Shown here: in pieces, positions 22,621-54,123 of the stretch
Numbering within the stretch: the stretch's first letter is position 1
Layout: each line of letters starts with the position of its first letter
Assembly: GCA_031551625.1 (NCBI GenBank)
Contig: JAVBNJ010000030.1
Location: 1,592 to 65,591 of the forward strand
Direction: 5' to 3'
DNA from: Bacteroidales bacterium
GTDB taxonomy: Bacteria > Bacteroidota > Bacteroidia > Bacteroidales > UBA932
DNA length: 64,000 bases
Position numbers and translations under genes: made by a program
The notes under the pieces: generated by a model
What the model was told of the DNA's origin: nothing
Seen by the model: only the letters and a program-made list of their open reading frames with translations
The model's database searches: none

Positions 22621-23610
22621 ATGACTACTTTTTTTACATATAATCCATTGTGGCACGAGCAAATCGGAAAGATTTATGCGCAGCTGGAACGTGTAAAAAT
22701 TACCGAAGAACTATCGAAAGATTTGCTGCACCTGCGAAGAAGCAATCGGATTCTTTCTATCAGTTCCACCACTGCTATTGAAGGCAACCAGCTTACCGTG
22801 CAGCAGGTTTTTGATGTGATTAACGGCAAAGTTGTCTTGGCTCCTTTGCACGATATTAAAGAAGTTAAAAACGCCTTCTCTGCTTACGAGCAAATTCCCG
22901 ATTTAGACCCATATTGTGTAGCCGATTTTCTGAAAGCCCATAATTTTATTACCGAAAATCTTGTTCAGGAGGCCGGGCAATTCCGCACCGTTGGCGTAGC
23001 GGTGGTTGATAGCAAAGGCGAAATTTTACATTCCGGAGCAGATTTTAAACAAGTGCCGACATTGACGGCCGAACTATTTGAATGGGCTAAAACGACCGAT
23101 GCGCATGCGCTTATCAAAAGTTCGGCCATGCATTTTATGATCGAATATATCCACCCTTTCCGCGACGGTAACGGGCGAATTGGGCGACTTTGGCAAACGC
23201 TTGTGCTAAACAAGTGGAATCCGGTGTTTGAGTGGTTACCTGTAGAAACGATGATTTACCACAATCAGGCAAAATACTACGAGGCGTTGCAGCAATCGCA
23301 TAATGGCCATGGAGCAATTGATTGTCGTCCATTTATTGACTTTATGATTGATGTGATTGAAAAATCTATGTATCAATATACAGACACAATAAATGGTGGT
23401 TTAAATGGTGGTTTAAATAGTGGTTTAAATGAAACTGAGAAAGCGATTATTTCTTTAATCAAAGAAAACTCACATGCCAGAACTTTCGAAATGGCGCAGA
23501 AATTATTGAAGCCGGTTCGCACCATCGAAAATAATCTACGACAATTAAAAGAAAAAGGAATAATAACCCGTATAGGCAGCAAAAAAACCGGTTATTGGGA
23601 AATAAATTAG
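22621..23610 (+). CDS. Fic family protein (AMPylase-type) with a C-terminal winged-helix domain
   Basis: Active-site HPFRDGNGRIGR. An N-terminal TTAIEG matches the (S/T)xxxE(G/N) auto-inhibitory motif. The C-terminus contains ...RQLKEKGIITRIGSKKTGYWEI. Confidence 0.9.
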   Translation: MTTFFTYNPLWHEQIGKIYAQLERVKITEELSKDLLHLRRSNRILSISSTTAIEGNQLTVQQVFDVINGKVVLAPLHDIKEVKNAFSAYEQIPDLDPYCVADFLKAHNFITENLVQEAGQFRTVGVAVVDSKGEILHSGADFKQVPTLTAELFEWAKTTDAHALIKSSAMHFMIEYIHPFRDGNGRIGRLWQTLVLNKWNPVFEWLPVETMIYHNQAKYYEALQQSHNGHGAIDCRPFIDFMIDVIEKSMYQYTDTINGGLNGGLNSGLNETEKAIISLIKENSHARTFEMAQKLLKPVRTIENNLRQLKEKGIITRIGSKKTGYWEIN

Positions 23611-23679: not shown

Positions 23680-23711
23680 TTTGCAAATGTAAAAACAATC
23701 TTTTACATTTG
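23680..23711 (+). promoter_or_regulatory. promoter (-33 TTTG / -7 TACATTTG) driving leader copy 1
   Basis: TTTG at 23680-23683, a 20-nt spacer, then TACATTTG at 23704-23711. The same box occurs in copy 2. Confidence 0.5.
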
Positions 23712-24122
23712 TGCAGGAATAGTTACGTTCTTTTCATCCGGTATATTCTATCTTTAGAAACCTAACAAATTTCAAGTCATAGTTTAGAATGTAAGCGACC
23801 GCACCATGTGCGTGGCTTTGGTTTATTTTACTATGACAGGTTTTGTTAGGACCTCTAAAGATGATAAATAAAAGCCGCGTTTTTATTTGATTATAAGTGA
23901 ATCTATGAAAACAGGCTACGGTTTAAAATCGTAGCAAGGAGTTGTTATTTCAATTAAAAATTGAAAATGAAAAATTATGAATGAATGTAGTAGAGGGAAT
24001 TGGTTTTATCGTTTGTGTTTGTTTCTACAAGCCAATTCCCGAAGCTGCAACATAAAGAGGAGTTGTTTTGCTCCTTGCAATAACGACTAAAAAATTAGTT
24101 AAACATTAAAATATATAAAGCC
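23712..24122 (+). promoter_or_regulatory. long structured 5-prime leader, copy 1 (candidate cis-regulatory RNA)
   Basis: No ORF of 60 aa or more. Nested helices at 23750-23769/23842-23862, 23776-23783/23830-23837 and 23930-23941/24071-24085. Homologous to 53740-54123, with compensatory changes in the helix arms. Confidence 0.55.
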
Positions 24123-25154
24123 ATGAAAAAACAGATTTTCTTTTTTGCGACCATGCTCCTAAGCATCATTTCAGTTGCACAACAACGCACATTCACAAAA
24201 TCGGTAAGCACGAACTATACTGCCAAGCAGGTTACGTTTACTATTTCGTGGGCGGCGGGAAGTCGTGGAACATATAGCGAAAAAGTGTACAATTCCAAAG
24301 TGTGGGTGCTGGTCGATTACCAGGAAGTCCGCAATGGAGTTCCTTCCGGTAATTGGCAGCGGGCCACTATTGATGTTACTAATTTGCCGGCTAATTGCAC
24401 GAAAGAAGGACTAATTACTACAGGCTTTTGGTATCAAGGGCAGACGAGTGGTGCGCAAAATGCAACTATTACAGTAAAACTTACCAATGTACCTGCACAA
24501 TTCAAGTGGTGTGCTTTTGCAACCGATTATCCGCCCAATGCTACCTATAGCAATGGAAGCTATACATTGCAAGGGACACCTCCATTTGAAATTATTTATA
24601 ATAGCGGCAATACCACAACTACAAACAACCGATTTTTTTCTGCGGGTACTATTACTGCCGTTACAGATGCAACGAAGTGCCCCGGAATCATTAATTGTGC
24701 AGGACGCGATCAACTGAACGTCTCCTCTTGTTGTCCCGGGTTGACCGTTGTTGGGGGCTACTGCCGGAACCTGAATGCCGATAATGCTTTCATTGCAGCC
24801 GATTGCGGAATCGAAATTAAAAAAGTGGATGGAACAAATAGCAATTGGACTTGTGAAAACGGATGGCGATTGCCCTCGGTGGCAGAGCTGAAATGTATAC
24901 AGAGAAACCTGCCTTCCACAGGCATGGCCATGCCTGCGAAAACATACAGAACAAACGAAGATGCTAATTGGGATTATTCTTGCGCCGCCTGCCATGGGGG
25001 TACGCAAGCTGTTTATGTAATTTTCAGCGCAACTATTGGTTCTTGGTGTCAACTTTGCGGAATTTGGAACCCTGCTGCCGGAAATGCAGTCCGGTTAGGC
25101 TCCTCTGCTTATCTATACGATGCTGTATCTAATAGTTACCGTTGTGTCCGTTAA
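24123..25154 (+). CDS. secreted surface protein with an N-terminal domain shared with 54124-56187 and a C-type-lectin-like (DUF1566/FISUMP-like) C-terminus
   Basis: Signal peptide. N-domain QVTFTISW..WVLVDYQ..WQRATI..TVKLTNVPAQFKWCAFATDYPPNAT. C-terminal GWRLPSVAELKCI ... YRCVR. Confidence 0.65.
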   Translation: MKKQIFFFATMLLSIISVAQQRTFTKSVSTNYTAKQVTFTISWAAGSRGTYSEKVYNSKVWVLVDYQEVRNGVPSGNWQRATIDVTNLPANCTKEGLITTGFWYQGQTSGAQNATITVKLTNVPAQFKWCAFATDYPPNATYSNGSYTLQGTPPFEIIYNSGNTTTTNNRFFSAGTITAVTDATKCPGIINCAGRDQLNVSSCCPGLTVVGGYCRNLNADNAFIAADCGIEIKKVDGTNSNWTCENGWRLPSVAELKCIQRNLPSTGMAMPAKTYRTNEDANWDYSCAACHGGTQAVYVIFSATIGSWCQLCGIWNPAAGNAVRLGSSAYLYDAVSNSYRCVR

Positions 25155-26595: not shown

Positions 26596-26669
26596 TGGAG
26601 GATATCGGAGTCGAACCGATGACCTCGTGCATGCCATGCAAGCGCTCTAGCCAACTGAGCTAATCCCCC
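26596..26669 (-). tRNA. tRNA-Ala (anticodon GGC)
   Basis: Hand-folded cloverleaf GGGGGAT-TA-GCTC-AGTTGGCTA-GAGC-G-CTTGC-ATGGCAT-GCACG-AGGTC-ATCGG-TTCGACT-CCGAT-ATCCTCC-A. The G3:U70 Ala identity pair is present. There is one T:C mismatch at 28:42 in the anticodon stem. CCA is not encoded. Confidence 0.88.
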
Positions 26670-29150: not shown

Positions 29151-29456
29151 ATGGAAACAACCGCCGATAAATTGCCCTTTTCTAAAAATCTGTTTTGGGA
29201 CGTAAACCCGAAAGAGGTGGGTATGGAGTTTTATTCGAGCTATATAGTAGAGCGCGTTTTAGACTATGGTCGTTGGAGTGATTGGCTGTTAATACGTAGT
29301 TATTACGGGTTGGATAAGCTAAAAAACATAGCGCTACAAATACGCTGTTTACGACCAAAATCGCTATCTTTTATAGCTACTGTTACACACACACCTGAAA
29401 ACAAATTCCGATGTTACAACGAAATACAGTCGAAGAGTCCACATTGGGTCTCTTAA
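29151..29456 (+). CDS. small protein partner of the AbiEii-like nucleotidyltransferase (antitoxin-like, DUF6922-like)
   Basis: 101 aa. It overlaps the downstream nucleotidyltransferase gene by 46 nt. LFWDVNPKEV...ERVLDYGRWSDW resembles the family usually found upstream of AbiEii genes (from memory). Confidence 0.5.
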   Translation: METTADKLPFSKNLFWDVNPKEVGMEFYSSYIVERVLDYGRWSDWLLIRSYYGLDKLKNIALQIRCLRPKSLSFIATVTHTPENKFRCYNEIQSKSPHWVS

Positions 29457-30022
29457 AAGAAATTCAAAAAATATCCTTATTTAAAGACACTCGTTTAGTA
29501 GGTGGCACCGCTCTTGCCCTACAGTTAGGACATCGATTCTCTATTGATTTAGATTTTTTTGGAACATTCAACGCATCCGGAAAAGAAATTTTTGAAGCAT
29601 TACAAAACGAAGACCTTACAATTTCTCATGATTACGAGAGTCGAAATATAAATCAGTTTACAGTAAATGATGTAAAAGTAGACACTGTAAATTATCGATA
29701 TAATTGGCTGGAACCGGCCATTGTTGACGAAGGAATAATAATGGCAAGCAAAAAAGATATCGCAGCTATGAAACTGGCGGCTATAACAGGACGGGGAACG
29801 AGAAAAGATTTTGTGGATTTGTATTTTTTACTGCAGCATTTTTCCTTGCAGCAAATGCTGGATTTATATATGCAAAAATATCCGGATGGAACAGAATTCA
29901 ATGTGCTACGAAGCTTGACCTACTTTGTAGATGCCGAAAAAATACCCATGCCTACTATGTTTATTAAAACAGAGTGGAATACCGTGAAATCGACCATTCG
30001 GGAAGCTGTAGCTAATCTTTAA
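29411..30022 (+). CDS. nucleotidyltransferase, AbiEii/AbiGii toxin family (type IV TA / abortive-infection type)
   Basis: LVGGTALALQLGHRFSIDLDFF is the characteristic AbiEii N-terminal motif, followed by KLAAITGRGTRKDFVDLYFL. Confidence 0.8.
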   Translation: MLQRNTVEESTLGLLKEIQKISLFKDTRLVGGTALALQLGHRFSIDLDFFGTFNASGKEIFEALQNEDLTISHDYESRNINQFTVNDVKVDTVNYRYNWLEPAIVDEGIIMASKKDIAAMKLAAITGRGTRKDFVDLYFLLQHFSLQQMLDLYMQKYPDGTEFNVLRSLTYFVDAEKIPMPTMFIKTEWNTVKSTIREAVANL

Positions 30023-30176: not shown

Positions 30177-31553
30177 TTATTGTTGTGTTGATGATGCTAT
30201 TTTTTTCATCACCGTTTTGTTGCGTATGGTAAATGTGGCTTGGAATTTATTATCTTCATCCAGTGCTACTACGCGGTAGGTGCCACCGGGCGACGGCGTG
30301 TCGTCGGAAGCAAAGGTGATGGTAATGTCGCCATTCTCGTTACGCTCAATAGCAGCCGGAGGCGCGCTGGTCAATTGATTGCTGCCAATTAGCGCAGCGA
30401 AGAGGGTTTTGGCATATTGTGTATTCCACGAATTGATAAATTGCGCGGGGATGTGCAATTTGCCTGTGTTGATAGCAACTATTTCAACAGTTGCGCCCAA
30501 CTTGGCAATTTTAACGCCCGATGTCATCAATGCTAATCCGTTAATAAATATTACACTTTCATCTTCACCTTGCTCTGTTCCCAGCGTAATGGTTACCTCG
30601 TAATTTTTTACACCTGTTGTAGAGTTGACAGGGTTGAGTTCTTCGGTAACCTCCCATGTACCTACCAAGTCGGAAACCTTCATAAACATTTCGCATGATA
30701 CAATGGATACAATCTTTGTCGAGCTAGGCACACCAGCGCCCGATGCATTAACACCCGCAACGGTGTAGGAGCCGGTTTCGGTTACTACATAGCTTGCACT
30801 TGTTGCACCTCCGATAGCTTCCCCATTTTTATACCATTGATACGACACCGCATTGGCAACAGGCTGTATAGAGAGTTCCACATTCTTGAGAGGACACATA
30901 TTCTCCGATGTACCTGCTATTTCGCCTGCTGCAACGGGTAACGGACATTGTGTAATGGTAATTCGTTTCTCTATACCGGGAGTTCCCACGCCCATTAAGT
31001 TAACGCCTGCTATGGTATATGCTCCGCTCTCGGTAGCTTCATATACAGGTTCGTTAGTTACAGCAACGGTCGTACCATTTCTGTACCATTGGTACGATGT
31101 AGCCCCTGTAATGGTTGCAGCAGTCAACTCAACCGATATCGATACAGGGCAAACATTAGTGCTTGCTCCACTGATAGCGCCTGCTTCGGCGGGCAATGTC
31201 ATGGCTCTGCCTGATTGTGTAACCGTTATTTCGTGCTTCAGCCCGCCGGTAGCCGTGACGCTTATCGTCCCCGTGCGTTGCGAGGTCGATGTGTTTTCAA
31301 GCGCTGATACGGTAATTATGGTAGCGCCCGCACCACGGGCAGGATTGATCGACAGCCATTCGGTATTGGTTGATTTTACTACAGCCCACTCCACCGGAGT
31401 GTTTACCGTAAAATTTACCGCCGATCCGTTGGCAGGCAGCGTTAGTTGTGCAGGGTCAACCGACAGGCTTACCGCACTCTCGTTATCGCCACTACAGGCA
31501 ACCAGCAACGCCACCAAGCATATCGACATGATATATATTAGATGTTTTTTCAT
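30177..31553 (-). CDS. BACON-domain lipoprotein with two Ig-like repeats
   Basis: Lipobox LLVACSG. BACON-like LSVDPAQLTLPANGSAVNFTVNTPVEWAV...WLSINP...TITV. Two repeats contain YQWY(R/K)NG. Last gene of the giant operon. Confidence 0.7.
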   Translation of the reverse strand: MKKHLIYIMSICLVALLVACSGDNESAVSLSVDPAQLTLPANGSAVNFTVNTPVEWAVVKSTNTEWLSINPARGAGATIITVSALENTSTSQRTGTISVTATGGLKHEITVTQSGRAMTLPAEAGAISGASTNVCPVSISVELTAATITGATSYQWYRNGTTVAVTNEPVYEATESGAYTIAGVNLMGVGTPGIEKRITITQCPLPVAAGEIAGTSENMCPLKNVELSIQPVANAVSYQWYKNGEAIGGATSASYVVTETGSYTVAGVNASGAGVPSSTKIVSIVSCEMFMKVSDLVGTWEVTEELNPVNSTTGVKNYEVTITLGTEQGEDESVIFINGLALMTSGVKIAKLGATVEIVAINTGKLHIPAQFINSWNTQYAKTLFAALIGSNQLTSAPPAAIERNENGDITITFASDDTPSPGGTYRVVALDEDNKFQATFTIRNKTVMKKIASSTQQ

Positions 31554-31598: not shown

Positions 31599-32459
31599 TT
31601 AATTGGCACCCAACATACTTCCTTTGCCAAAGCTCAGGCGGAGCTTAACACCCACTGCCAGCAAATTCAACTTATCGCTTGATGCAGCAAGGCTTCCGTA
31701 ACCAAAACCATCGGGGTATGATGTAGCCTGATTATTGTACATAACCAGCGCAGAACTCTCGCCTTTATTAATGTTGTTCAAGCCATAGTCGAAATACACT
31801 CCGGCGTACAAGTTCAATGTTTCATTCAATTTAAACTTGAAACCTGCTTCAGCCGACAGCATAAACGCCACATTCAAATCAAGGTCAGACTTCTGGTCTA
31901 CGTCATAAATGCCAAAGCCCTTACCCGGCAAATCATTTGCTCCTATGGGAACAGCCCACGACGGTATATAACCCGTAGTGTTGAGGTTACCCGTTGTTTT
32001 TACCGTTCCGCTTAACGGGATGCCGGCTTTAACGCCCAACGCGCCAAAAAATGCTGTTTTGCCTTGTGTTTGGAACTGTGCCATCAGGGGAATGGTAAGC
32101 ATCATTGCCGATACCTTTTCTTTATAATCGGTGTATGAATACATAAAATCGAATGCACTACCTGACCCCAACACTGCATTGCTTGTGCCGCTGATGTTGT
32201 TGGTAGTAGCCTTGCTGTTGTACATGGCAATGTTGACACCTGTACCCACCGCCCATTGCGGCGCAAAGAAGTAGTGATAACCTACGCCAAATTCGCCACC
32301 GTAGCCGGGGGTATGGCTTACCGAGTTGTAGGAGTATTGCAGCGAAGAAAGCCCGCCTCCACCGTTTACCGAAAACTCGTGACGGTGCTGTTGCGCCATT
32401 GCCGTACCGCACACACATAGTACAAATACCAGTGATATTATTTTATTTTTCATAATCAT
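31599..32459 (-). CDS. outer-membrane beta-barrel protein (porin-like OMP_b-brl family), paralog A
   Basis: Signal peptide ending AMAQQ. It shares HEF..N..GGLS.LQYS, IPLMAQ and Y.G.YFDYGLNNI with 38596-39483. It starts 24 nt downstream of the giant gene. Confidence 0.7.
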   Translation of the reverse strand: MIMKNKIISLVFVLCVCGTAMAQQHRHEFSVNGGGGLSSLQYSYNSVSHTPGYGGEFGVGYHYFFAPQWAVGTGVNIAMYNSKATTNNISGTSNAVLGSGSAFDFMYSYTDYKEKVSAMMLTIPLMAQFQTQGKTAFFGALGVKAGIPLSGTVKTTGNLNTTGYIPSWAVPIGANDLPGKGFGIYDVDQKSDLDLNVAFMLSAEAGFKFKLNETLNLYAGVYFDYGLNNINKGESSALVMYNNQATSYPDGFGYGSLAASSDKLNLLAVGVKLRLSFGKGSMLGAN

Positions 32460-32483: not shown

Positions 32484-35400
32484 TTATTTAACCACCAGTT
32501 TTGTGGAATAGTTTACACCGTTAGGGCCTACCAGTTGCAACACATACACGCCTTGCTGCAGGCCGCTTGCATCAACCGAATTTTCTGCACCATATACCGG
32601 TATATTGCCTTTTACTAATATGCCATTCACATTGTATATGTTGATAACAGAGCCTTCGGAAGCACCATTCATCTTAACGATAAATTTAGTACTTGATTCA
32701 ACAGGGTTAGGATACACTGTTAAAGCAGTGCTACCGGCCGTGTGGCTGAATGGGCAAACGCTAACCGGTTTGTTATCGCTCGTCAACATCTCGCAGTGGT
32801 ATGTGGCGTTAGCTTCGGCTTGAATAAAGGGTTTGGTTGCGCCCAGTATAGCCACTCCGTTTTTATACCATTGGAACGATACAAACGTAAATCCACCATT
32901 GGTTGCGGGGTTGCAGTTAATCATGGGAATATCATCCCATTCGAAAACCATTATTTTATTAGTGCTACTATTCATCGGAATACCTACGCGCAATGTAGCC
33001 ACATCGCTATAGGTACGTTCCGACCGTCCACTAATTACCACGCGGTAGTTGCCGGCATCGGCAAGCGTTGCATTGTTTATTGTTAAATTCTGTGTGTTTG
33101 CACCACTGATATTTTGCCAGCTTGTACCGTTTTGTTTTTGCCATTGGTATGTAACTTCAAGCCCACTTGCTGCGATGTTGAAAGAATGATTTTCGCCACT
33201 ACATACGCTAGCACTCACGGGTTGTTGCGATATAGTGTTGGGCTCCGCTTTTACGGTTAATGTACCATCAACTATTGTAAACGCATAACGGTCGGGCGAT
33301 GTATTGTTCACTACCGGACGGATTGCGTACATGCCAGCTACCGATGTTTCATCAACATCTGTTGTGTAGCTTACCATTGCTGCAATATCGCTTTCCGTAT
33401 CGCCATCCAAATACATGCCGCTAATACCTCCGGTAAACGTCGGGTTCGGTGTATTTTCAGTCCTTTCAGCATTATGGGCAGTTACTGTCATCACCGCTTT
33501 GGCAAACAAACATGTTGCCGGCGACAGTTCCGATTCCATTTCTGCATCGCCGTTGTAGGTGGCGGATATGGTATAGCAATGGTCTCCCGTAAAGGCTGTT
33601 TTATCTTTGAAAGAATGCTCTGTCATAGATTCTATCAAAACACGCCCGCCGCGGTAAAGTTTGTAGGTAGTGGGTTTTACTGCTTCGGTTTCCAATACCA
33701 CCGCCAAGTTCCAGTTAACGCTTATTTGAGATATTGACGATAACGGTGTAAAATCATCGCCTCTAAGCGCAATCAAATCGCCCTTGCCTTCCATAGCAGG
33801 GCCTGCATCGCAACCTGCCACAAACACATTGTCCGATGCGCCACCCGCAGCTTGTATGTAGGAGTAGCTTACCATAAGTTCTTTAGTCACATCCAACGTA
33901 AGCGGATTAGTAAAGATAATACGGTTAAACTGTCCGGCCGTTAGACCTTCCATCGGTTGTGTATAAACAATTTGGCCATTCTGGCGAATGTTCACTTTCA
34001 TAGATTGACCCAACACTTTCGGGAAAAACTCAATCCCCTTAATTTTCGCACCTTGGTAGGACAGCAAGTCACTCATATCAAATAATACGGCTATCTCCAT
34101 TTCGGCAGGCGTACTGGCAGTAACACCAATAGCCGTATAATTTGTACCGTTATCCCAACGCAATAAAGTTGTAGCAGCATCGTCTTGTTTTGATATCTCT
34201 GCTGCACTTGCTCTAGCCGGTGTCGCACTTGTTGTGCTTGTCGAGATCAGTTTATACTTATCGGCCGATAACTTTTGATACGGTGTCAACACTACGTTTT
34301 GTATTGATTTCTCATCCATTTGTTTTTGTTCGGCATCAGGCATGTTGGTATTGCTTGATTCTGCGGCAGATTTCGTAGGATTGATTCCTTTGCTCCAGCT
34401 TACGTTGATGTCTTTCTCATTATCATCGTATACGGCTTGGAAATTGCTGGGGTAGGAGCCGCCCTGTTTTACCAAAACGGTCAACGGATTGCCGCTTGCA
34501 TAAACCGTAATTGCACCGTTGCGCACGGCATCTGTAGTGTTATTGGTGCAAGTAAACGTAAATGTACCCTTGCCTTCGGCGTCAACCGTGCCGTTTTGAG
34601 CACTTGGTATAATCCACGGATCAGTTTCCACTCTCCACGATTTACCGCTGGCGGTAAATGTGACCTCGCCCGTTGTTGCATCAACATCTTTTCTTTTGAA
34701 AGATGTAGCCGATGTAAGTTCGGCGGTAGTGTACGTAAATTCCGGTACAATATTCATTGACAAATAGAATCCTGAAAGCAGTGCAGGTATTGCCATCCAT
34801 GTGTTTTGGTAGTATACATATACTGTACCGTACCCATTACTGCGCGCCTCGGTTGTAGAAACGGCATACGCTCCGCTGGTCGACGATTTGGCAAGTACCA
34901 CATGGAATGCGCCCGAAACGCCCGCCGGTTGCGGGAAGGTAACGGTTGTATAGCCCGAATTATTCAGGTTGGTAACTGTACTCGAAGCAAGCAGCGTACC
35001 CGGCATGCCATTTTTGTCGCTGTAAATACCCACCAACATAACTGGCGTGCCCGACGTTACCAGGGTGTGTACTTTTACACTAGAAATTTCGCCGGTGGCC
35101 GGAGCTACGAAACGCTCAGAAATAAACGCAAAGTAACCTGTACCGGGTGCTATTATATATTCGCTTCCGTCGCTGTAATATTGCGTGGGGTCTTCACCTT
35201 GTTGCACGTTCCACACCTCGGCAGTACCGCCCACTTTAATATAGTCGGGAATGGTAAGCTCACTTGTTCCGGCAGTATTTGTGGCTTTAAATGTTACCGG
35301 ATAGGTGTTTTTTCCTTCGGGATATCTCACTTCAAACAACCGGCTGGTTGAGGTAGCAGGATCTGCCCCCGGCAACTCCCATTCAAACGATTTGGGATAG

Positions 35401-38400
35401 TTTCTTGTTGTATCCTGATAAATGACCCGGCCTCCTGTAAGCGGCAGAAATTGCCCATAGTTTGATTTCATCGTAAACCCATTTGAGTACGACAGGAATG
35501 TGGGGATGGGTTTTTGAGCTTTTACGGTTACAACGCCATCAAAGGTTTTGGTGTTTTCTCCAAAGTTATTGGCTACTTTTAGCGTAGCGCTGTAAACCCC
35601 GTTGTTCATATATTTTGCCGTAGGATTTACTTCGGTAGTTGTTTCGTTGTTGCTGCCGGGCAATGTCCAACTCCATGACACGGGAGGCCCCGACGATAAA
35701 TCGGTAAAGCTTACGGTTTCTCCTTCGTTGATTTCAATTTTGCCGCTGGGGTTGGGCGTAAACACGCGCACACCGTCAATCCCAATGTGGAAACCGCCAT
35801 TACCCTTTACCTGCCAGGCAAATTTCAATGTTTTTCCGTTGTAACTACTCAAGTCAATAGTTTGCTTGCGCCATTGGTAGCCCATAGTCGTGTTCGCGTT
35901 TCCGGCAGTCCAAACTTGATCCCACGTAACGCCGTCATCCGAAGAGATGTAAAGCATGATGGTCATATTTGCCAATAATGTGCCTGAGTACTCCGTGTAA
36001 AACTCCATTTTTGTCGTAGCATCGGTAATGCTTACAGCAGGCGACTTCAGCCAAGTGTCAACCATATTTGAACCGGATTCGGCAACTACCAAAGCCGAGA
36101 AAACGCTTGTAGGGTCTATTGTGCTAAAGAAATAGTTCTGCACATTGTTCTGCACCCATTGCGAGTTGCTTGTTCCGGGCTTTTCAATCACCCAACCTGC
36201 AGGTGGAAAAGCTTTTCTTACATCAAATCCTTCTTTTAATAAGTTACGCTCTGTAAGAGCTGTAAATTCAGCCACCGGAGCATCGGCGGCACCACACGAT
36301 TTCTCAAATTTGATTTTTACATTCGGGCGATTGTCGTTTACCGTACCACTCACCATAGGCAGCGCTTGTCCATTGCCCACCCATTGCATGTGGGCATTAG
36401 TAGTTGTTGTGTAGTAACACTTAGAAGAAGTACTGATAACTGTGCCCGTGGCACGCACCATAATCTTCAAATTCTTTGTACCACTATAGTTAAAAGGCAT
36501 AGTAAGCTTAATTGTTGTCCATCCGGCATCGTTAATCCAGTATGCCGAACTTTGATACACCAGTGTGGCGCCCGCTATTTCATTGAGCCATGTGTTACCT
36601 TCGGCAGCAAACGTAGCATTGTCAACCTCTTTTATATACACATACAGCGTGCGGGCATAAGCCGTTGCCAAGCCAGCGTTCCACGCAATTTCGGTAATTG
36701 ATCCGGGCGTTGAACCCAATTCCCCAGGCGTATAAATTGAAGAGCTGAGCGTGTGCAAATCCGTTGCACCGAAGGGGAAGGGGCTTTCGCCCGTACCTGT
36801 TCCAATATTCAGTATATCGGTACATGTTTTTTGTTTTTGTAGCACTGTTATGGTTTCCGATACTGACGATTCTTTTTCTGTTCCTTTATTAATAACAAGT
36901 TTAGCTTCGTAAGTACCCGGCGTATTGTAGGCAATAACAGGTGGGATTTTTCCACTGAATGATGATGGCGAACCGCCCGCAAATAGCCAATCCCAAGTGG
37001 TTGCAGCAGTCGATACATCCTTAAAGGTTACCGACTCCGAAGCATATATTTCCGATTTACTAACCATGAAAACTGCCACAGGGTCTATACCGGCGCTATA
37101 TGTACCATCAATATATTCTAATCCTGTCCCTCTCGGGTCAAGATAATCTTTCATCTTTTGGGCACTTTGGTCCCAATGATACCAAAGCTTTCCGTATAAA
37201 TTTTGGTAGGTAGGGTTATTACATGACGACGAGCCACCCGTAAGCGTACCCACCACCCGCTTGTTTTGGTCGAACAACGGAGAACCCGACGAACCTTGCT
37301 CGGTAATACCATGTCCGTTTTGCGTGGCTGCAAAAAATATTTGCCAGTGCGCATTAGTTGCACCAATCTCGCCGGATGACATGACTGCAGTAGTAGTGTT
37401 GGCCGGTACTACGTATGTTGATATTTTTTTGATGTCGCCCGTCGGGTGGTGAATACCCACGCCACTTTCGGCCGCAATATTGCGCCTGTCCCATCCATTA
37501 AAATACACATTATAACTCTCAGGGATAGGTTCGTTCAAGCGGAGCAACGCACCATCGGCCCCACCGTTTAACGGAACGTCAACCAACATCGTTGCACCTA
37601 CAATGGTGGGTGCGTCGGGGTCGTAGCCCGACGCGCTTTTACAACCCGGCGCCTCATAATGGAAGTAATAAATAGTTTGATTGTGATACCTTTCAGGCAA
37701 ATCCATGTAACAGTGGTGAGCACTGAGGAATAACGGGTCGAGGTTTTGTGCCGTATTATTTATAAGCGTACCGCTGCAAAGGGCAAAACCTTGTTCAGTC
37801 CTTGTAAGAATACGGGCTACCCCTTTCTTTTGGTCTTGCCAATTATCACCTTCGGGACAATTCACATTCACCTCGCAGGCACCCGAAGGCCAGTTGATTT
37901 TAAAATCACTCCCTCTCAACTCCATGTGGTTGTATCCATAGCCAATGCCCGAAATCACAATGCGAGGCTTATCGGCAGTGCTGCCATCAACCGTTATTTG
38001 TTGCTTCCTGATTTGCGTAGAACCCGCAATAGGCGTGTCTTTCAGTCCATCGGAAAGCGGTTCGGCATATTCCAAAATTACCTCATCGCCCCCTATTAAC
38101 TCGGTAGCATACTCGGCGCGCTTGGGGTTGTTCTTCGACGTGTAGGCCCCCAGAACCTTCGAGTGGCTGGGGTTATAGATAAACAATTTTCCACCCGCAG
38201 GGATAACAAATTCATCATACGTAAGCAATATACCCAGTGCATTAGGTGCTTTGACTGATAAGCGCCAGATGCGTTGTCCGGAGGGTAAAGTAGTCCACTC
38301 TCCGGAATTTTCCATGGTCATGTGCACAGGAATAATTTGGGCAATGCGCAACGGGTATCCCATTGCTTCCAGCTTTGCATCTTCTGCTTTCAATGCAGCT

Positions 38401-38588
38401 ATATCAAAGTCTACCGGGATTTGTTTGGTTGTCAGACTTTGTTTGCTTATACTTTTGTCAGAAAAACTTGGTGGCGTACCCCCTTCACTAATTTGTGCAT
38501 TAGCGGGCGTAAGCCATATTACTGCCATCAACAGCAATACTATTTTTAGAAAAGAATTGTATCGTTTCATAGTTAAATTTATTTTCAT
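32484..38588 (-). CDS. giant (2034 aa) T9SS-secreted multidomain protein with an N-terminal trypsin-fold serine endopeptidase (lysyl-endopeptidase-like)
   Basis: Signal peptide. Catalytic motifs CSGTLI...LSAHHC, DGALLRL and GSSGSPLFD. PKD/Ig-like and beta-sandwich repeats follow. The C-terminal Por sorting domain is TVYPNPVESSTKF...GVYVLQLV...STKLVVK. Confidence 0.85.
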   Translation of the reverse strand: MKINLTMKRYNSFLKIVLLLMAVIWLTPANAQISEGGTPPSFSDKSISKQSLTTKQIPVDFDIAALKAEDAKLEAMGYPLRIAQIIPVHMTMENSGEWTTLPSGQRIWRLSVKAPNALGILLTYDEFVIPAGGKLFIYNPSHSKVLGAYTSKNNPKRAEYATELIGGDEVILEYAEPLSDGLKDTPIAGSTQIRKQQITVDGSTADKPRIVISGIGYGYNHMELRGSDFKINWPSGACEVNVNCPEGDNWQDQKKGVARILTRTEQGFALCSGTLINNTAQNLDPLFLSAHHCYMDLPERYHNQTIYYFHYEAPGCKSASGYDPDAPTIVGATMLVDVPLNGGADGALLRLNEPIPESYNVYFNGWDRRNIAAESGVGIHHPTGDIKKISTYVVPANTTTAVMSSGEIGATNAHWQIFFAATQNGHGITEQGSSGSPLFDQNKRVVGTLTGGSSSCNNPTYQNLYGKLWYHWDQSAQKMKDYLDPRGTGLEYIDGTYSAGIDPVAVFMVSKSEIYASESVTFKDVSTAATTWDWLFAGGSPSSFSGKIPPVIAYNTPGTYEAKLVINKGTEKESSVSETITVLQKQKTCTDILNIGTGTGESPFPFGATDLHTLSSSIYTPGELGSTPGSITEIAWNAGLATAYARTLYVYIKEVDNATFAAEGNTWLNEIAGATLVYQSSAYWINDAGWTTIKLTMPFNYSGTKNLKIMVRATGTVISTSSKCYYTTTTNAHMQWVGNGQALPMVSGTVNDNRPNVKIKFEKSCGAADAPVAEFTALTERNLLKEGFDVRKAFPPAGWVIEKPGTSNSQWVQNNVQNYFFSTIDPTSVFSALVVAESGSNMVDTWLKSPAVSITDATTKMEFYTEYSGTLLANMTIMLYISSDDGVTWDQVWTAGNANTTMGYQWRKQTIDLSSYNGKTLKFAWQVKGNGGFHIGIDGVRVFTPNPSGKIEINEGETVSFTDLSSGPPVSWSWTLPGSNNETTTEVNPTAKYMNNGVYSATLKVANNFGENTKTFDGVVTVKAQKPIPTFLSYSNGFTMKSNYGQFLPLTGGRVIYQDTTRNYPKSFEWELPGADPATSTSRLFEVRYPEGKNTYPVTFKATNTAGTSELTIPDYIKVGGTAEVWNVQQGEDPTQYYSDGSEYIIAPGTGYFAFISERFVAPATGEISSVKVHTLVTSGTPVMLVGIYSDKNGMPGTLLASSTVTNLNNSGYTTVTFPQPAGVSGAFHVVLAKSSTSGAYAVSTTEARSNGYGTVYVYYQNTWMAIPALLSGFYLSMNIVPEFTYTTAELTSATSFKRKDVDATTGEVTFTASGKSWRVETDPWIIPSAQNGTVDAEGKGTFTFTCTNNTTDAVRNGAITVYASGNPLTVLVKQGGSYPSNFQAVYDDNEKDINVSWSKGINPTKSAAESSNTNMPDAEQKQMDEKSIQNVVLTPYQKLSADKYKLISTSTTSATPARASAAEISKQDDAATTLLRWDNGTNYTAIGVTASTPAEMEIAVLFDMSDLLSYQGAKIKGIEFFPKVLGQSMKVNIRQNGQIVYTQPMEGLTAGQFNRIIFTNPLTLDVTKELMVSYSYIQAAGGASDNVFVAGCDAGPAMEGKGDLIALRGDDFTPLSSISQISVNWNLAVVLETEAVKPTTYKLYRGGRVLIESMTEHSFKDKTAFTGDHCYTISATYNGDAEMESELSPATCLFAKAVMTVTAHNAERTENTPNPTFTGGISGMYLDGDTESDIAAMVSYTTDVDETSVAGMYAIRPVVNNTSPDRYAFTIVDGTLTVKAEPNTISQQPVSASVCSGENHSFNIAASGLEVTYQWQKQNGTSWQNISGANTQNLTINNATLADAGNYRVVISGRSERTYSDVATLRVGIPMNSSTNKIMVFEWDDIPMINCNPATNGGFTFVSFQWYKNGVAILGATKPFIQAEANATYHCEMLTSDNKPVSVCPFSHTAGSTALTVYPNPVESSTKFIVKMNGASEGSVINIYNVNGILVKGNIPVYGAENSVDASGLQQGVYVLQLVGPNGVNYSTKLVVK

Positions 38589-38595
38589 AGGATTT

Positions 38596-39483
38596 TTATC
38601 TGAAAGCTATGCGTGCCTTGATACCAATGGTCATGAGATTAATTTTATCAACTCCCACGCCATTCGTTGCCGATTGCAGTGCACTGTTGTAGCTGTAAGG
38701 AGCAGTTGCACCTTTGTATACCACCATTGTGTTACCGCTTGGGGTGTAAATGTTATTCAACCCATAGTCGAAATAGGCGCCGGTGTAGAGTTGCAAGCGG
38801 TCGGTCAATCGCCATTTCATACCGGCTTCGAGTGCCAACATGCATGTGAACTTCAAATCCAAATCGCCATCGTACGAAGGATTGGCAAGGATTCGGAAGC
38901 CAAGCGATTCGTCGGTATACGTTTCGCCCGTGTATTTCGACTCGCCTGTAACTGCCAGTGAAGTTGCGTCAGCCTTGTATGTCGACGTTAACGGAATACC
39001 AAATTTGAAACCCGCTGCGGCATAAAACTGATTTTTCGCTACAGGCAATGAATACTGCGCCATTAACGGAATGTTGAGGTACATGGCCGATTGTTTTTCT
39101 TCATAAGATGCATAATCACCATGGATAAAGAATCGAGTGTCGCTCCCCGGAGGAGGCGTTGGTGTAATGGGCGGCGAGGGTATTTCGTAACTCTCGCTCA
39201 CCGCATCGGCTTTAAACGTGCTGTTGTAAAACGCAAGGTCAAGACCCGTTGTAAAGCCCCATGTTTCGGTAAAGTTGTAGGTATAGCCAAGCCCGAAACC
39301 GCCGCCAAAGCTGCTACTGCGCGAACCTGTGGAAACGCTGTATTGCAGGGTTGACAAGCCGCCCGAAGCATTAAACATAAACTCATGCGGAGTAGTTTGC
39401 TTCTCCTGTATCACGTCTTGTTCCTGTGCCGTAGCAACGGAGGCAAGAAACAGACTGAGTATTGTAATGTATATTTTTTTCAT
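38596..39483 (-). CDS. outer-membrane beta-barrel protein (porin-like OMP_b-brl family), paralog B
   Basis: Signal peptide ending ATAQEQ. It is a paralog of 31599-32459. It starts 22 nt downstream of giant gene 39506-45967 and ends 7 nt upstream of giant gene 32484-38588. Confidence 0.7.
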   Translation of the reverse strand: MKKIYITILSLFLASVATAQEQDVIQEKQTTPHEFMFNASGGLSTLQYSVSTGSRSSSFGGGFGLGYTYNFTETWGFTTGLDLAFYNSTFKADAVSESYEIPSPPITPTPPPGSDTRFFIHGDYASYEEKQSAMYLNIPLMAQYSLPVAKNQFYAAAGFKFGIPLTSTYKADATSLAVTGESKYTGETYTDESLGFRILANPSYDGDLDLKFTCMLALEAGMKWRLTDRLQLYTGAYFDYGLNNIYTPSGNTMVVYKGATAPYSYNSALQSATNGVGVDKINLMTIGIKARIAFR

Positions 39484-39505: not shown

Positions 39506-42500
39506 TTACTGTACTACGATGTTGAATGTTTTCTTTTGTCCGCTTCCCGATATAATTTGCAACACATATGCACCTGACGCTTCTGGCGCTTTAATAGTTG
39601 ACGTATAGTCAGCAGGCATATCAACCTGCAATACACCTTGCATGTTATATAGGCGGATACGTGCACCTTTCTGCTCGTTTTCATCCAAATACGAGTAAAC
39701 ATTGAGCGGATTGCCTGCTTTTACCGGATTGGGAAATACTTGCATATCCTGTGTTGTTGCAACTGTCGGATTAAGCGCACAAGTGGACACTGTAGTGCCA
39801 TCGCTGGTAGTTAAGAGCACGGTATAATTTGATGTGGCTGCATTGGGGCGTTTGCTGAGGTACAGCGTACTCCTGGTTTCACCGTCAATTGCTACACCGT
39901 TTTCGTACCATTGGAAACCGGTAAACGTATAGCCGCCATTGTGTGCAGGCACGTTAATAATCGATAGTACATCGTCCCACAATTGCGCTATTACTTGCGA
40001 TGCTGCAAACGGGCGTATTACGTTTACCATGTAATCTTTGGTGGTAGTTCCATCCGAAGCCAGGGAGCGAACTATAATTGCCGTATGCATATCTGTAGCT
40101 GTATACGGCATACTCACCGGTGTATTATTTACAAGATACGACACCGTGCCACCTGCCTGCGCTGTGGCCGCAATGTTTACATTGCTGGCGTCACAAGGCA
40201 AGTTAAGCGTGTATTGTGTAACGTTGGCATCAAATGCCGGCGACAACGCTCCGTTGCCTGTATCATTTATCAAGCCGGTTAATGCAGCGTCGGCCGTAGG
40301 TAGCGCCGTAAAGGTTGCCTCGATCAGATGGTTTGCATTGATGTTGGCAAACACGTAACTGCCGCTGTTTATAGCATCGGCATTGCTTACGCCATCAATT
40401 TGTACATCTTGTATTTTAAAACCTGATGCAGGCGTAACGGTATATGCTTTACTGCTGCTGTAGGTTACTGTGGTAGCACCTGCAGGCGATATGCTACCGT
40501 TAGCTCCGGCATTAGCCGTTATGCTGAAAACCTTCCGCTCGAACGTTACATTGATAGTATGATCTGCTGTGACGTTGGTAAATGTATAGCGACCTGCTTT
40601 AGCAGAATCGGGAACATTTACACCGTCAATTAACACTTGCGAGGTTTTGTACCCCTCAGCAGGTGTAAAGGTGAAAGCATAGTTGTTGCCATAACTTACA
40701 GTTTGCACTGCACCGGGCGATATGCTGCCGTTAGCACCTCCTGTTGGTGTAAGGCTAAACGTGGGAATCACACAATCGGTGGTCATGCAAACTCTGTCGG
40801 ACTCGAAACCATAATTACCACAAATAGCTGCGACACAATAGGTATGCGTACCCGCGGTAATTCCGCTATCATCAGTATAGGTTGTTACGGTAGCGTTTGA
40901 CGCAATTTTTACACCATCGCGATACACATTATAACTTCCACTGCCTACTAATGGTGCCGTCCAGCCTAATCCTATTTTAAATTGACCATCATACGGATAG
41001 TTGATAAGGTTTATACCCGACGGCTGCGCGCATTGCGGCGCAATGGCAACATCGTCAATCAGTATATTATTTCCGCCCATACCAACACCCTCGATAATTA
41101 CATACGCTGATGTGGGAATTGCCGAACAGTCGAGATTGACACGGTATTGATACCAGCCCTCTTTCTCAACTACGGGCGACAAAACGGAACTACGGTGAAC
41201 AGTGGCCAATGGAGTAAGACCCGTGATATCGGGCGTTGCACTCAAGTAGATGTTTACCGAGTCGGGTTTTTGACCACTACCTGGAGAGGCATCGTAATTA
41301 TCACGATACATCCAGAAGGCAAGCACATAGTCGGTTTTAGCGGTAGAGAAGGCCGGCGTAATTACCAAACCTTTTGTACCTGCGAGATATGACGGACAAT
41401 TGAATAGCAACATATATGGACCTGTATGCGGACCTGTATGCGGCACTCCCGACAAAGCAATCTGACGAATAAAGCTATTGCTTATTGGAGTTGTCCAGCA
41501 AAGCGGTGGAAATTTTGCTTTATCAAAACTTTCATATATTTCTTCAAACGGTGTAGCACAGGGTATTTCGAGCATATCTACTACTACAGGTTCGGTTTTT
41601 GCCGACTCGCAATAACCGTTGTTCCATACGGTTGATAAGTGGTAGGTATAGGTGCCTTGCCCCGGTACTGAATCTAAATGCATGAAGCCCTTGATAGGAT
41701 TGGCTGTCAGAAGAGAGTCGTCGCGATACAGATTATACCCTACAGGGAAAGTTTCGCTACCATGAATGATAAATGGCATACCTTGGCTTGCCCCACTGTG
41801 CGCGTCTTTCAAATCTTGCCACCAAAATACAGGATGCAAATCGTCTTTTGGCATTTGCTGTTTGGCATTTCCGGTTGCCTCCTGCCCTTTAATGGCAATG
41901 GGCACACCCCATGTTTGCGCACCGGTTTGGGGGGTTGCACCCGGTGCACTTAAGCTGTAGCGCACCCAGTACGTTCCGGCGAGAAGCTCGGTATTAATGG
42001 TTGCCGTAATTTTCATAATGGGGCGCTCGGTATTTTGCATATCCGACGGACGAACCCTGTATATCCCTGTAAACTCCGTCGACTTCAAATAACTTTTATC
42101 TTCATTTCCCCAAATAATTTTACCATCTGCCGATGGGTCACCATCATATATCAACACGTTGATAGCGCGGAAGGTTGAAGTCGTCCCTGAGTTAGTTACA
42201 AACCCGAAGAAATCGATATCCGTAATAAACGTTGGCGCGGTGAGTGTAAAATCGTCGGCAATGGCATAGTGTGACGAGTGCGTGTTGGCATAGCCCGGCG
42301 TGGTATTGGTTTCGGTGGTAGCACTCACATCTGCCCCCCCTTTGCCCGCTCCGGCATCGGTAACTAGTTTCGCTTCGTCAAGAATAACTGTTTCGCCCAT
42401 CGGGTCGGGCAACCCCCATGTCATTTGCACGTTGTACCACTCCGGCTCGTGCAGTTCCAAAGCTGTAAGGTCTTTCGGCAAGTTGCATGCGCCCGGCGTA

Positions 42501-53708: not shown

Positions 53709-53739
53709 TTTGGCGGTTAAAAATATTGTGCTACATTTG
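53709..53739 (+). promoter_or_regulatory. promoter (-33 TTTG / -7 TACATTTG) driving leader copy 2
   Basis: TTTG at 53709-53712, a 19-nt spacer, then TACATTTG at 53732-53739. Confidence 0.5.
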
Positions 53740-54123
53740 CGGTAACAATAGACGTTCTTTTGGTTCGGGTAAATTTATTCTCGTTGAAAAATCTTGACAA
53801 TTTTTGCATTAAGAGAATAGTGGAAACCACTGGTAAAACGTGGGTTTTGCTTATTTTTAATGCAGGTAGTCAAGAACCTTTCAACAAATGAGTTTAACCT
53901 GCGTTTTTGTTTTTTGCTCACAGATTCCACAGAAGGGAGAACAAATTACGGAAATTGAAACGAAAGAGGCAGCGAATGAAAAATCGTAGCAAGGGGTTGT
54001 TGTGTTTGTTTGTTGATGGAACGCGGATGACGCGGATTAGACGGATTTACGCGGATTTTAAAACAACCCCTATGCTACGTAAATAAAACTAAAAAATTAG
54101 TTAAAATTTAAAATAAAATATGT
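53740..54123 (+). promoter_or_regulatory. long structured 5-prime leader, copy 2 (candidate cis-regulatory RNA)
   Basis: Helices at 53783-53798/53869-53885, 53805-53812/53857-53864 and 53985-54001/54062-54079. The architecture matches 23712-24122. The 18-mer ACTAAAAAATTAGTTAAA at 54088-54105 is identical in both copies. Confidence 0.55.

Follow-up and report, generated by a model that had tools for sequence, protein, structure and literature searches.

A structured 5' leader RNA with covarying helices and a candidate two-state switch in front of a secreted-protein gene family of gut Bacteroidales

Two paralogous surface-protein genes in a 64,000-nt stretch of DNA from a Bacteroidales bacterium of the lineage UBA932 (assembly GCA_031551625.1, contig JAVBNJ010000030.1; the whole stretch is called the window and all position numbers refer to it) are preceded by copies of one structured leader RNA. 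The first leader (copy 1, W1) occupies positions 23680-24122 in front of the ATG at 24123 and the second (copy 2, W2) positions 53709-54123 in front of the ATG at 54124. A preliminary description of copy 1, made from the sequence alone, had proposed a structured 5' leader with covarying helices P1 and P2. This core claim is strongly supported, the number of known copies having risen from 2 to 67. The interval is best explained as a promoter and a 5' leader of about 410 nt belonging to a surface-protein mRNA, and chances are roughly even that the leader is a new cis-regulatory switch between a read-through state (the helix formed by P1 and P2, named the rod) and a terminator state (a long-range helix named A:B). 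Overall, the observation is confirmed, with the earlier interpretation right at its core and wrong in distal details.

Two leaders of common layout

Direct reading and an inverted-repeat search recovered all the features described earlier for copy 1, and copy 2 shared their layout while the arm sequences were unrelated (Table 1). As had been reported, no open reading frame (ORF) of 60 aa or more lies in the copy 1 leader, the longest one between promoter and ATG being 37 aa, and the window holds only one other such region: a covariance model (CM) of the element matched exactly two places in it, 23747-23889 and 53778-53913. Folding energies compared with dinucleotide shuffles gave z = -6.9 for copy 1 and z = -6.3 for copy 2.

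The same architecture was found in the window leaders and in the upstream regions of the family genes elsewhere. A Bacteroidetes-type promoter is followed by box 1, (A/G)YGTTCTTT, an optional variable hairpin and the rod, after which come segment B with its U-rich tail, the motif GGCAGCGAATAAAAAATCGTAGC, the hairpin P3 with the loop GTTTGTGTTTG, an A-rich stretch and the ATG. The leaders are 350-410 nt long and contain no conserved ORF.

A family of 67 leaders linked to one gene family

Relatives were collected in a protein-guided scan with one genome per species, which returned 128 loci; 80 loci, from 11 Bacteroidales metagenome-assembled genomes (MAGs), were kept. Ten of the 11 MAGs belong to one MAG series, in which two sample labels, Kf353 and Roe453, denote lower-termite guts (PMC11707648). 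The CM, built from 45 input sequences, identified 63 true copies in the 80 scanned loci. These copies came from eight Bacteroidales genome bins other than that of the window, of which seven belong to the termite-gut MAG series. Two paralogs on unbinned contigs of the window's own sample (L202 and L203), which lay outside the set used for CM building, scored 90-100 bits. Together with the two copies in the window, the homolog search thus gave 67 copies.

The link to the gene family is strict. In 61 of the 63 cases a family gene was detected with a hidden Markov model directly 3' of the leader, and the other two cases were ORF-picking artefacts. At least 27 leader copies were present in a single MAG, Roe453_bin86. 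In two MAGs, Nc350_bin165 and Cc175_bin23, family genes were present with different leaders. Many MAG contigs among loci L001-L080 break off inside or just upstream of family genes, and 13 of these loci have less than 500 nt of upstream sequence. Both observations fit an interruption of the assembly where leader and N-terminal region are repeated, and the copy numbers per genome are therefore underestimates.

A metagenome scan with the P3-based pattern AAAATYGYRGYN{12,42}GTTTGTGTTTG was too loose, returning at least 120 unrelated stretches, and serves as a negative control. The CM gave no match in the 80 listed metagenome loci (509 kb of unrelated DNA), and a regex and duplex screen of the 120 stretches found unrelated sequence only.

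The earlier statement that the element is not a named RNA family also held. None of the 4227 models of Rfam 15 reached E = 1 on the element. The only gathering-level match in the window was the tRNA at 26596-26669; at E values up to 10 both leaders gave sub-threshold noise, and five termite-MAG loci yielded a tRNA only.

Covariation of the rod

The rod comprises 27-30 bp in the family and consists of P1 outer, an AA/ACC internal loop, P1 inner, a UUU/GG junction and P2. It was present in the minimum free energy (MFE) fold of all 45 sequences (45/45). Pairing and covariation were compared with shuffled controls in two alignments, one made with MAFFT and not fitted to a structure, the other fitted with the CM. 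In the MAFFT alignment 79.4% of cells were paired against 65.6% in shuffles, none of 500 of which reached the observed value, and the covariation score was 0.45 against 0.21 in shuffles and 0.08-0.18 with the partners slid; P1 outer and P1 inner were 78-86% paired with many double changes, P2 being misaligned there. The CM alignment gave 91.4% of cells paired against 66.0% in shuffles and a covariation score of 0.70 against 0.23, with P1 outer, P1 inner and P2 each 88-92% paired. Seven successive pairs of P1 inner were paired in nearly 100% of the sequences of this alignment, with two to five pair types each. The covariation proposed from two copies thus stands far above the shuffled and slid controls.

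Because structure-fitted alignments lean towards their model, an alignment-free test was added, in which duplex energies were computed between the 5' arm of a locus and the 3' arms of all loci in turn. Cognate arms formed much stronger duplexes than non-cognate ones in P1 outer (-7.8 vs -1.7 kcal/mol), P1 inner (-9.9 vs -2.8 kcal/mol) and P2 (-8.4 vs -1.7 kcal/mol), with p ~1e-32 for each helix.

The mean column identity of the rod is only 0.55 between loci. Its unpaired AA, CC, GG and UUU are 92-100% conserved, GG and CC being invariant in 52 of 52 sequences. G-U pairs were frequent on the + strand in all helices, which indicates that the functional molecule is the + strand RNA.

Table 1. Features of the two leaders and their genes in the window
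Feature	Position	Strand	Description
Copy 1 promoter	23680..23711	+	-33 TTTG 23680-83, 20-nt spacer, -7 TACATTTG 23704-11; read directly
Copy 1 box 1	23718..23734	+	AATAGTTACGTTCTTTT; predicted transcript 5' end
Copy 1 rod	23750..23862	+	P1 outer, internal loop, P1 inner, junction, P2
Copy 1 P1 outer	23750-58 / 23854-62	+	ATCTTTAGA / TCTAAAGAT; perfect arms
Copy 1 P1 internal loop	23759-60 / 23851-53	+	AA / ACC, between P1 outer and P1 inner
Copy 1 P1 inner	23761-69 / 23842-50	+	CCTAACAAA / TTTGTTAGG; perfect arms
Copy 1 P1-P2 junction	23770-75 / 23838-40	+	TTTCAA / AGG, between P1 inner and P2
Copy 1 P2	23776-83 / 23830-37	+	GTCATAGT / ACTATGAC; perfect arms
Copy 1 apical hairpin A':A	23798..23815	+	ACCGCAC / GTGCGTGG; local, covers the 5' part of A; from MFE folds
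Copy 1 segment A	23811..23826	+	CGTGGCTTTGGTTTAT; 5' arm of A:B, within the apical loop of the rod
Copy 1 segment B	23864..23879	+	ATAAATAAAAGCCGCG; 3' arm of A:B, 1-2 nt 3' of the rod
Copy 1 U-rich tract	23880..23889	+	TTTTTATTTG; directly 3' of B, candidate termination point
Copy 1 extra P3 5'-arm copy	23926..23946	+	AAATCGTAGCAAGGAGTTGTT; pairs locally with 23915-24 and with 24071-88; not at the family P3 position
Copy 1 P3 hairpin	23987..24048	+	arms GTAGTAGAGGGAATTGG 23987-24003 / CCAATTCCCGAAGCTGC 24032-48; loop GTTTGTGTTTG 24011-21; assigned by homology
Copy 1 18-mer	24086..24103	+	ACTAAAAAATTAGTTAAA; small ACTAA/TTAGT hairpin, 19 nt 5' of the ATG
Copy 1 gene	24123..25154	+	343 aa; signal peptide, all-beta N-terminal domain of the family
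Copy 2 promoter	53709..53739	+	TTTG 53709-12, 19-nt spacer, TACATTTG 53732-39
Copy 2 rod	53783..53885	+	inverted repeats, MFE fold; CM score 98 bits
Copy 2 P1	53783-89 / 53879-85 (outer); 53792-98 / 53869-75 (inner)	+	loop AA 53790-91 / ACC 53876-78
Copy 2 P2	53805-12 / 53857-64	+	
Copy 2 A:B and U-tract	53835..53916	+	arms 53835-56 / 53886-907, core CGTGGGTT / AACCTGCG, then TTTTTGTTTTTT to 53916
Copy 2 P3 hairpin	53985..54079	+	arms CGTAGCAAGGGGTTGTT 53985-54001 / AACAACCCCTATGCTACG 54062-79; loop with GTGTTTGTTTGTTG and four ACGCGGATT repeats (54021-57)
Copy 2 18-mer	54088..54105	+	18 nt 5' of the ATG at 54124
Copy 2 gene	54124-56187	+	687 aa; FISUMP C-terminal domain

A long-range helix followed by a U-tract

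The best candidate for a switch, the long-range helix A:B with the U-tract that follows it, had been overlooked in the preliminary description. It was chosen as the consensus structure by RNAalifold on an alignment that was not structure-fitted. Its family consensus is AACGTGGAyTTT..yTTAT for segment A and ATAArTT..rTTCACGTT for segment B, the helix having 14-20 bp and a mean duplex energy of -17 kcal/mol. A:B was 92-96% paired, with double or compensatory changes at 9 of 13 pairs, such as GGTCGTTAT/ATAACGACC in L066 and CGTGGCTTT/AAAGCCGCG in W1; a compensatory change from C-G to G-C also separates copy 1 from copy 2. The inner pairs covary as well (e.g. UA 25, CG 13 and UG 7 in the CM alignment). 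Cognate A:B duplexes (-17.2 kcal/mol) were stronger than non-cognate ones (-12.0 kcal/mol; p = 3e-19). For the local hairpin A':A the corresponding values were -7.7 and -5.7 kcal/mol (p = 9e-6), a moderate support for this hairpin in the family.

The 10 nt after A:B contain a mean of 6.5 T across 51 leaders, every leader having a U-rich tail there, and two T positions are more than 90% conserved. In both window leaders a stable stem is directly followed by a U-rich tract (TTTTTATTTG in W1, TTTTTGTTTTTT in W2), and the A:B state, ending in the U-tract, resembles an intrinsic terminator. The invariant GG and CC of the rod are able to pair with each other in this state.

Since both the rod and A:B covary, both alternative structures are under selection. 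According to the alignment, 2-4 nt separate the inner end of A:B from the P2 top, and 2 nt separate it from the base of P1 outer. Linkers this short could not span a rod of 27-30 bp, so the complete rod and the complete A:B should, on geometric grounds, be alternative and mutually exclusive states.

The stretch spanning A and B forms a quasi-palindrome centred on the 3' strand of P1 inner. In 27 leaders the CM also matched the reverse strand, with scores of 28-63 bits and a shift of about 50 nt (e.g. L038 2269-2408), because A resembles the reverse complement of B and GGGT that of ACCY.

Proposed mechanism and alternative explanations

According to the proposed mechanism, segment A would pair alternatively with the nearby A' or with segment B. 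With the rod and A':A formed, RNA polymerase would read through into the gene; with A:B formed, this helix and the U-tract would act as an intrinsic terminator and the transcript would be aborted after about 170 nt. The balance between the two could be set by a putative effector, an RNA-binding protein or small molecule that would recognise the invariant unpaired AA, CC, GG and UUU. Termination at the U-tract and an effector of this kind are both predictions from the structure.

Several points weigh against such a switch. A consensus terminator scan called no + strand terminator in either leader, and A:B, with a loop of about 45 nt and about 4 G-C pairs beside the U-tract, is unlike the compact G+C-rich stem with a short loop (3-8 nt) of typical terminators. 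The rod forms first during transcription, and nested folding favours it over the A:B state by a mean of 11 kcal/mol, so termination would need an active trigger that blocks or opens the rod. As P3 is a clear RNA hairpin 3' of the U-tract, read-through must be common. The exclusivity of the two states is argued from geometry, and a strongly bent rod may form a true pseudoknot. The read-through state would be locked by a further pairing, B:C, of B with a GAAACGTG segment that follows 30-50 nt later; this pairing is weak (-9.4 vs -7.7 kcal/mol for cognate and non-cognate duplexes, p = 3e-4, median rank 10 of 43), absent in several loci and kept only as a possibility.

An appreciable, though minor, probability is therefore left to a static structured RNA without a termination switch. 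The rod, A:B (as a tertiary or pseudoknot contact of a bent rod) and P3 would then be recognition or processing sites for RNase III or another double-stranded-RNA-binding protein, or a 5' stabiliser left after cleavage, and would set mRNA half-life or translation family-wide. Such a role would suit the long, near-perfect duplexes of the rod and P3 (17-30 bp), the far greater stability of the rod compared with the alternative fold, the near-invariant loop GUUUGUGUUUG, which resembles a recognition site, and the retention of P3 as RNA 3' of the U-tract, by which full-length leaders must be made. It does not account for the covariation of the inner A:B pairs, which are so close to the rod (2-4 nt from the P2 top, 2 nt from the P1 base) that an intact rod could not be bridged, nor for a U-tract conserved beyond any pairing need. 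It is improbable that the promoter, rod and A:B terminator make up a separate gene for a small RNA of about 170 nt acting in trans, e.g. on other paralogs, with the surface-protein mRNA arising from read-through or from a second start near P3. The element always accompanied a family gene, the stretch from B to the ATG lacks a canonical TTTG-N19-TAnnTTTG promoter, and the pairing of P3 as RNA with G-U wobbles means that transcripts must start 5' of its 5' arm. In favour of a small RNA are a strong conserved promoter, a compact structured RNA with a terminator-like end, rod arms that are unique to each paralog and could give specificity, and a P3 loop, GTTTGTGTTTG, that weakly resembles a -7 box.

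Explanations without an RNA function were given little credence. Invertible promoters with flanking inverted repeats control many Bacteroidales surface structures, and a perfect 11-nt inverted repeat lies inside the copy 1 promoter, so the repeats might be sites at which a recombinase inverts the segment, or palindromic operators of a DNA-binding regulator. Such a function at the DNA level is very unlikely, and DNA inversion was rejected: the promoter lies upstream of both arms, outside the repeats; complementarity is retained by arms whose sequences vary from locus to locus (mean column identity 0.55); the many + strand G-U pairs would be A-C mismatches on the other strand; only about 70-80 bp separate the P1 arms; and all 67 copies have one internal orientation, although consensus assemblies could hide minor ones. 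Hardly credible is a duplication relic, an upstream region copied with its gene, even if the leaders are invariably associated with paralogs of a single gene family. The arms are still complementary despite a nearly random divergence, the unpaired junction nucleotides are invariant, the observed pairing greatly exceeds that of the shuffled and slid controls, and the alignment-free test argues against an alignment artefact.

The switch could also be read more broadly, though this reading is doubtful. The leaders would then be RNA switches of a new class, based on two long helices that have no common nucleotides and exclude each other by topology. A dedicated protein or small-molecule effector would read them, and one clade of gut Bacteroidales would in this way gate transcription of a whole surface-protein repertoire of 30 or more members. 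The paralog-specific arms might allow individual or mutually exclusive expression, which would make the leaders an RNA-based counterpart of the systems built on UpxY/UpxZ and invertible promoters.

Promoter and transcript 5' end

The -7 motif TAnnTTTG was present in all 51 family leaders with enough upstream sequence, 22-73 nt 5' of the rod, and in 39 of the 51 it was preceded by TTTG 19-20 nt upstream. Transcription of the leaders probably starts at this promoter, as judged from its motifs. A box 1 of the type (A/G)(C/T)GTTCTTT was found in 50 of 51 leaders. It was rejected as a conserved start codon, as ACG, GCG, ATG and TCG alternate there; where an ORF starts in box 1, it stops 5' of the rod. 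In a comparison of the two window copies for a leader-peptide attenuator, their short ORFs (21-59 aa) were not conserved between them, and a leader peptide as the regulator was dismissed for lack of a conserved ORF or start codon. Pairing of the transcript 5' end with the start-codon region, suggested by the MFE folds of W1 and W2, was likewise discarded as a feature of the family: across 51 leaders cognate pairing (-7.8 kcal/mol) was no better than non-cognate pairing (-7.5 kcal/mol; p = 0.18).

The perfect 11-nt inverted repeat of the copy 1 promoter (23684-23694 / 23701-23711, CAAATGTAAAA / TTTTACATTTG) spans the region from -33 to -7. It is absent from copy 2.

P3 and the distal region

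P3 has 17-20 bp in the family and the near-invariant loop motif GUUUGUGUUUG. RNAalifold on 60 leaders gave 17 pairs, with double changes at 10 and numerous G-U pairs on the + strand; cognate arms paired at -28.2 kcal/mol and non-cognate ones at -23.7 kcal/mol, P3 being supported in 60-62 leaders. The arms of copy 1 P3 also occur in L202. This second module may be a recognition or stabilising element.

It is in this distal part that the earlier interpretation failed. The complementarity proposed as a distal helix of copy 1, between GCAAGGAG (23934-41) and CTCCTTGC (24071-78), exists, but the conserved helix of the family is P3 at 23987-24048. A switch in which CTCCTTGC would choose between GCAAGGAG and a nearby AGGAG had no counterpart in other leaders. 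The conserved sequence islands were real, a 21-mer island matching twice with 0.00 matches expected; the one at 23926-46, however, turned out to duplicate the P3 5' arm further upstream. The identical 18-mer in front of both genes was also real: exact matches occurred at the two leaders only, with 5 matches within 3 mismatches against 0.28 expected. It is limited to the window's own lineage (W1, W2, L001, L202 and L203) and does not occur in the termite-MAG leaders. The P3 loop was also considered as the site of a second promoter, which was rejected, since the -7 box is imperfect, a proper -33 box is missing and P3 pairs as RNA with G-U wobbles.

Other variation was noticed in and around this region. 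Repeats ACGGATTT/ACGCGGAT, akin to the ACGCGGATT units of copy 2, occur in or near other leaders in variable copy number (L009; in L068 upstream of the promoter). Between P3 and the start codon, about a third of the leaders carry AGAACATAGAC-like units of about 11 nt in variable number (e.g. L032 680-740, L050 2260-2330), and the remaining leaders have a short A-rich linker instead. Two relatives contain an insertion of 90-220 nt between the 18-mer and the ATG (L001 2290-2500 and L203 475-593). The first includes a long hairpin, GGAGATGTCTCCACTTCG...CGAGTGAAGTGGAGACATCTC, the second a 12-codon ORF right after the 18-mer, and both look like small inserted elements.

Downstream proteins and genomic context

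The 343-aa protein encoded behind copy 1 has 66 relatives, the named ones all being proteins of 'Prevotellaceae bacterium' MAGs. The two proteins of the window have in common an N-terminal domain of about 190 aa with 40% identity and nothing else. This domain (24123-24722 in the window) is confidently predicted to be all-beta, with a predicted local distance difference test score (pLDDT) of 83. Searches of Pfam, NCBIfam, PDB sequences and PDB folds gave no significant match for it, the best Foldseek hit being an adhesin domain at E = 0.02. The label 'lectin-type' given earlier to the copy 1 gene applies in part: the copy 2 protein passes the cut-off of FISUMP/TIGR02145 (55.1 bits, NCBIfam cut-off 41.65), whereas the copy 1 protein matches neither this model nor any other in Pfam or NCBIfam.

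The neighbours of both copies are ordinary chromosomal genes, coding for HflX, MnmG, malate/lactate dehydrogenase, YbeY, adenine deaminase and a TonB-dependent receptor. A Fic/helix-turn-helix protein (22621-23610) is encoded directly upstream of copy 1, and an AbiEii-family toxin gene (29411-30022) and the tRNA gene (26596-26669) lie on the - strand. The window also contains a BACON/Ig-domain protein (30177-31553) and, on the - strand, two giant ORFs of 2034 and 2153 aa (32484-38588 and 39506-45967), each followed by a gene for an outer-membrane beta-barrel (31599-32459 and 38596-39483).

The upstream regions of the family genes in Nc350_bin165 (L055, L073, L078 and L079) are entirely different and have long perfect tandem repeats, with GCACAGC repeated 17.4 times in L055 (2215-2336) and units of about 50-60 nt in L078 and L079. 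These tracts might be phase-variable.

Significance and comparison with known systems

Surface variation in Bacteroidales is known to involve invertible promoters and antitermination by NusG paralogs. To our knowledge, no dedicated structured leader RNAs for surface-protein families have been known in this order. The comparative support for the element described here is very strong, comprising 67 copies and dozens of compensatory changes, and it combines an unusual interleaved two-state design with strict linkage to a single expanded family of secreted proteins of lower-termite symbionts. At a minimum, the element qualifies as a solid candidate for inclusion in Rfam as a new family. Should the switch prove real, it would add a new layer of control after initiation to surface variation and offer a well-defined RNA for finding a new effector, protein or metabolite.

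Among known regulators, the leader resembles terminator/antiterminator systems such as B. subtilis trp-TRAP, PyrR, BglG/SacY-RAT and riboswitch expression platforms. In both, a long 5' leader has alternative pairings, one of which forms a stem that ends at a U-tract before the regulated gene; the conserved unpaired nucleotides are a candidate effector site, and A':A covers the 5' arm of the presumed terminator. Unlike in those systems, the competing helices have no common nucleotides, are interleaved in a pseudoknot topology and are exclusive by geometry only. The presumed terminator encloses about 45 nt, no Rfam model matches in sequence or structure, and the regulated genes code for secreted surface proteins, not for metabolic operons.

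A second parallel is found in the leaders of Bacteroides capsular polysaccharide (CPS) operons, where UpxY/UpxZ, ops sites and pause hairpins exert an elongation control that chooses among paralogous surface loci, promoter inversions also being mentioned for these operons (PMC11685472). The resemblance lies in the host order, in long transcribed leaders before multi-copy surface loci, in the elongation control after initiation that is proposed here and in a possible choice among paralogs. However, CPS operons start with a locus-specific NusG paralog and its inhibitor, and their recognition relies on non-template DNA and short pause hairpins, not on a covarying rod of 30 bp and a long-range helix (PMC11685472). 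Here, the first and only gene is that of the surface protein, which directly followed the leader in 61 of 63 cases, and no NusG-like domain was detected among the window neighbours scanned.

The cis-regulatory motifs of Bacteroidota found by comparative genomics and curated in Rfam are also intergenic, covariation-supported motifs upstream of one gene class. They differ in sequence and fold from the present element, whose length (two modules, about 300 nt) is unusual and which is bound to a single paralog family to an unusual degree, one MAG carrying at least 27 copies. Within the known kind of cis-regulatory leader RNAs or attenuators, the element is best classed as a new family and an unusual variant.

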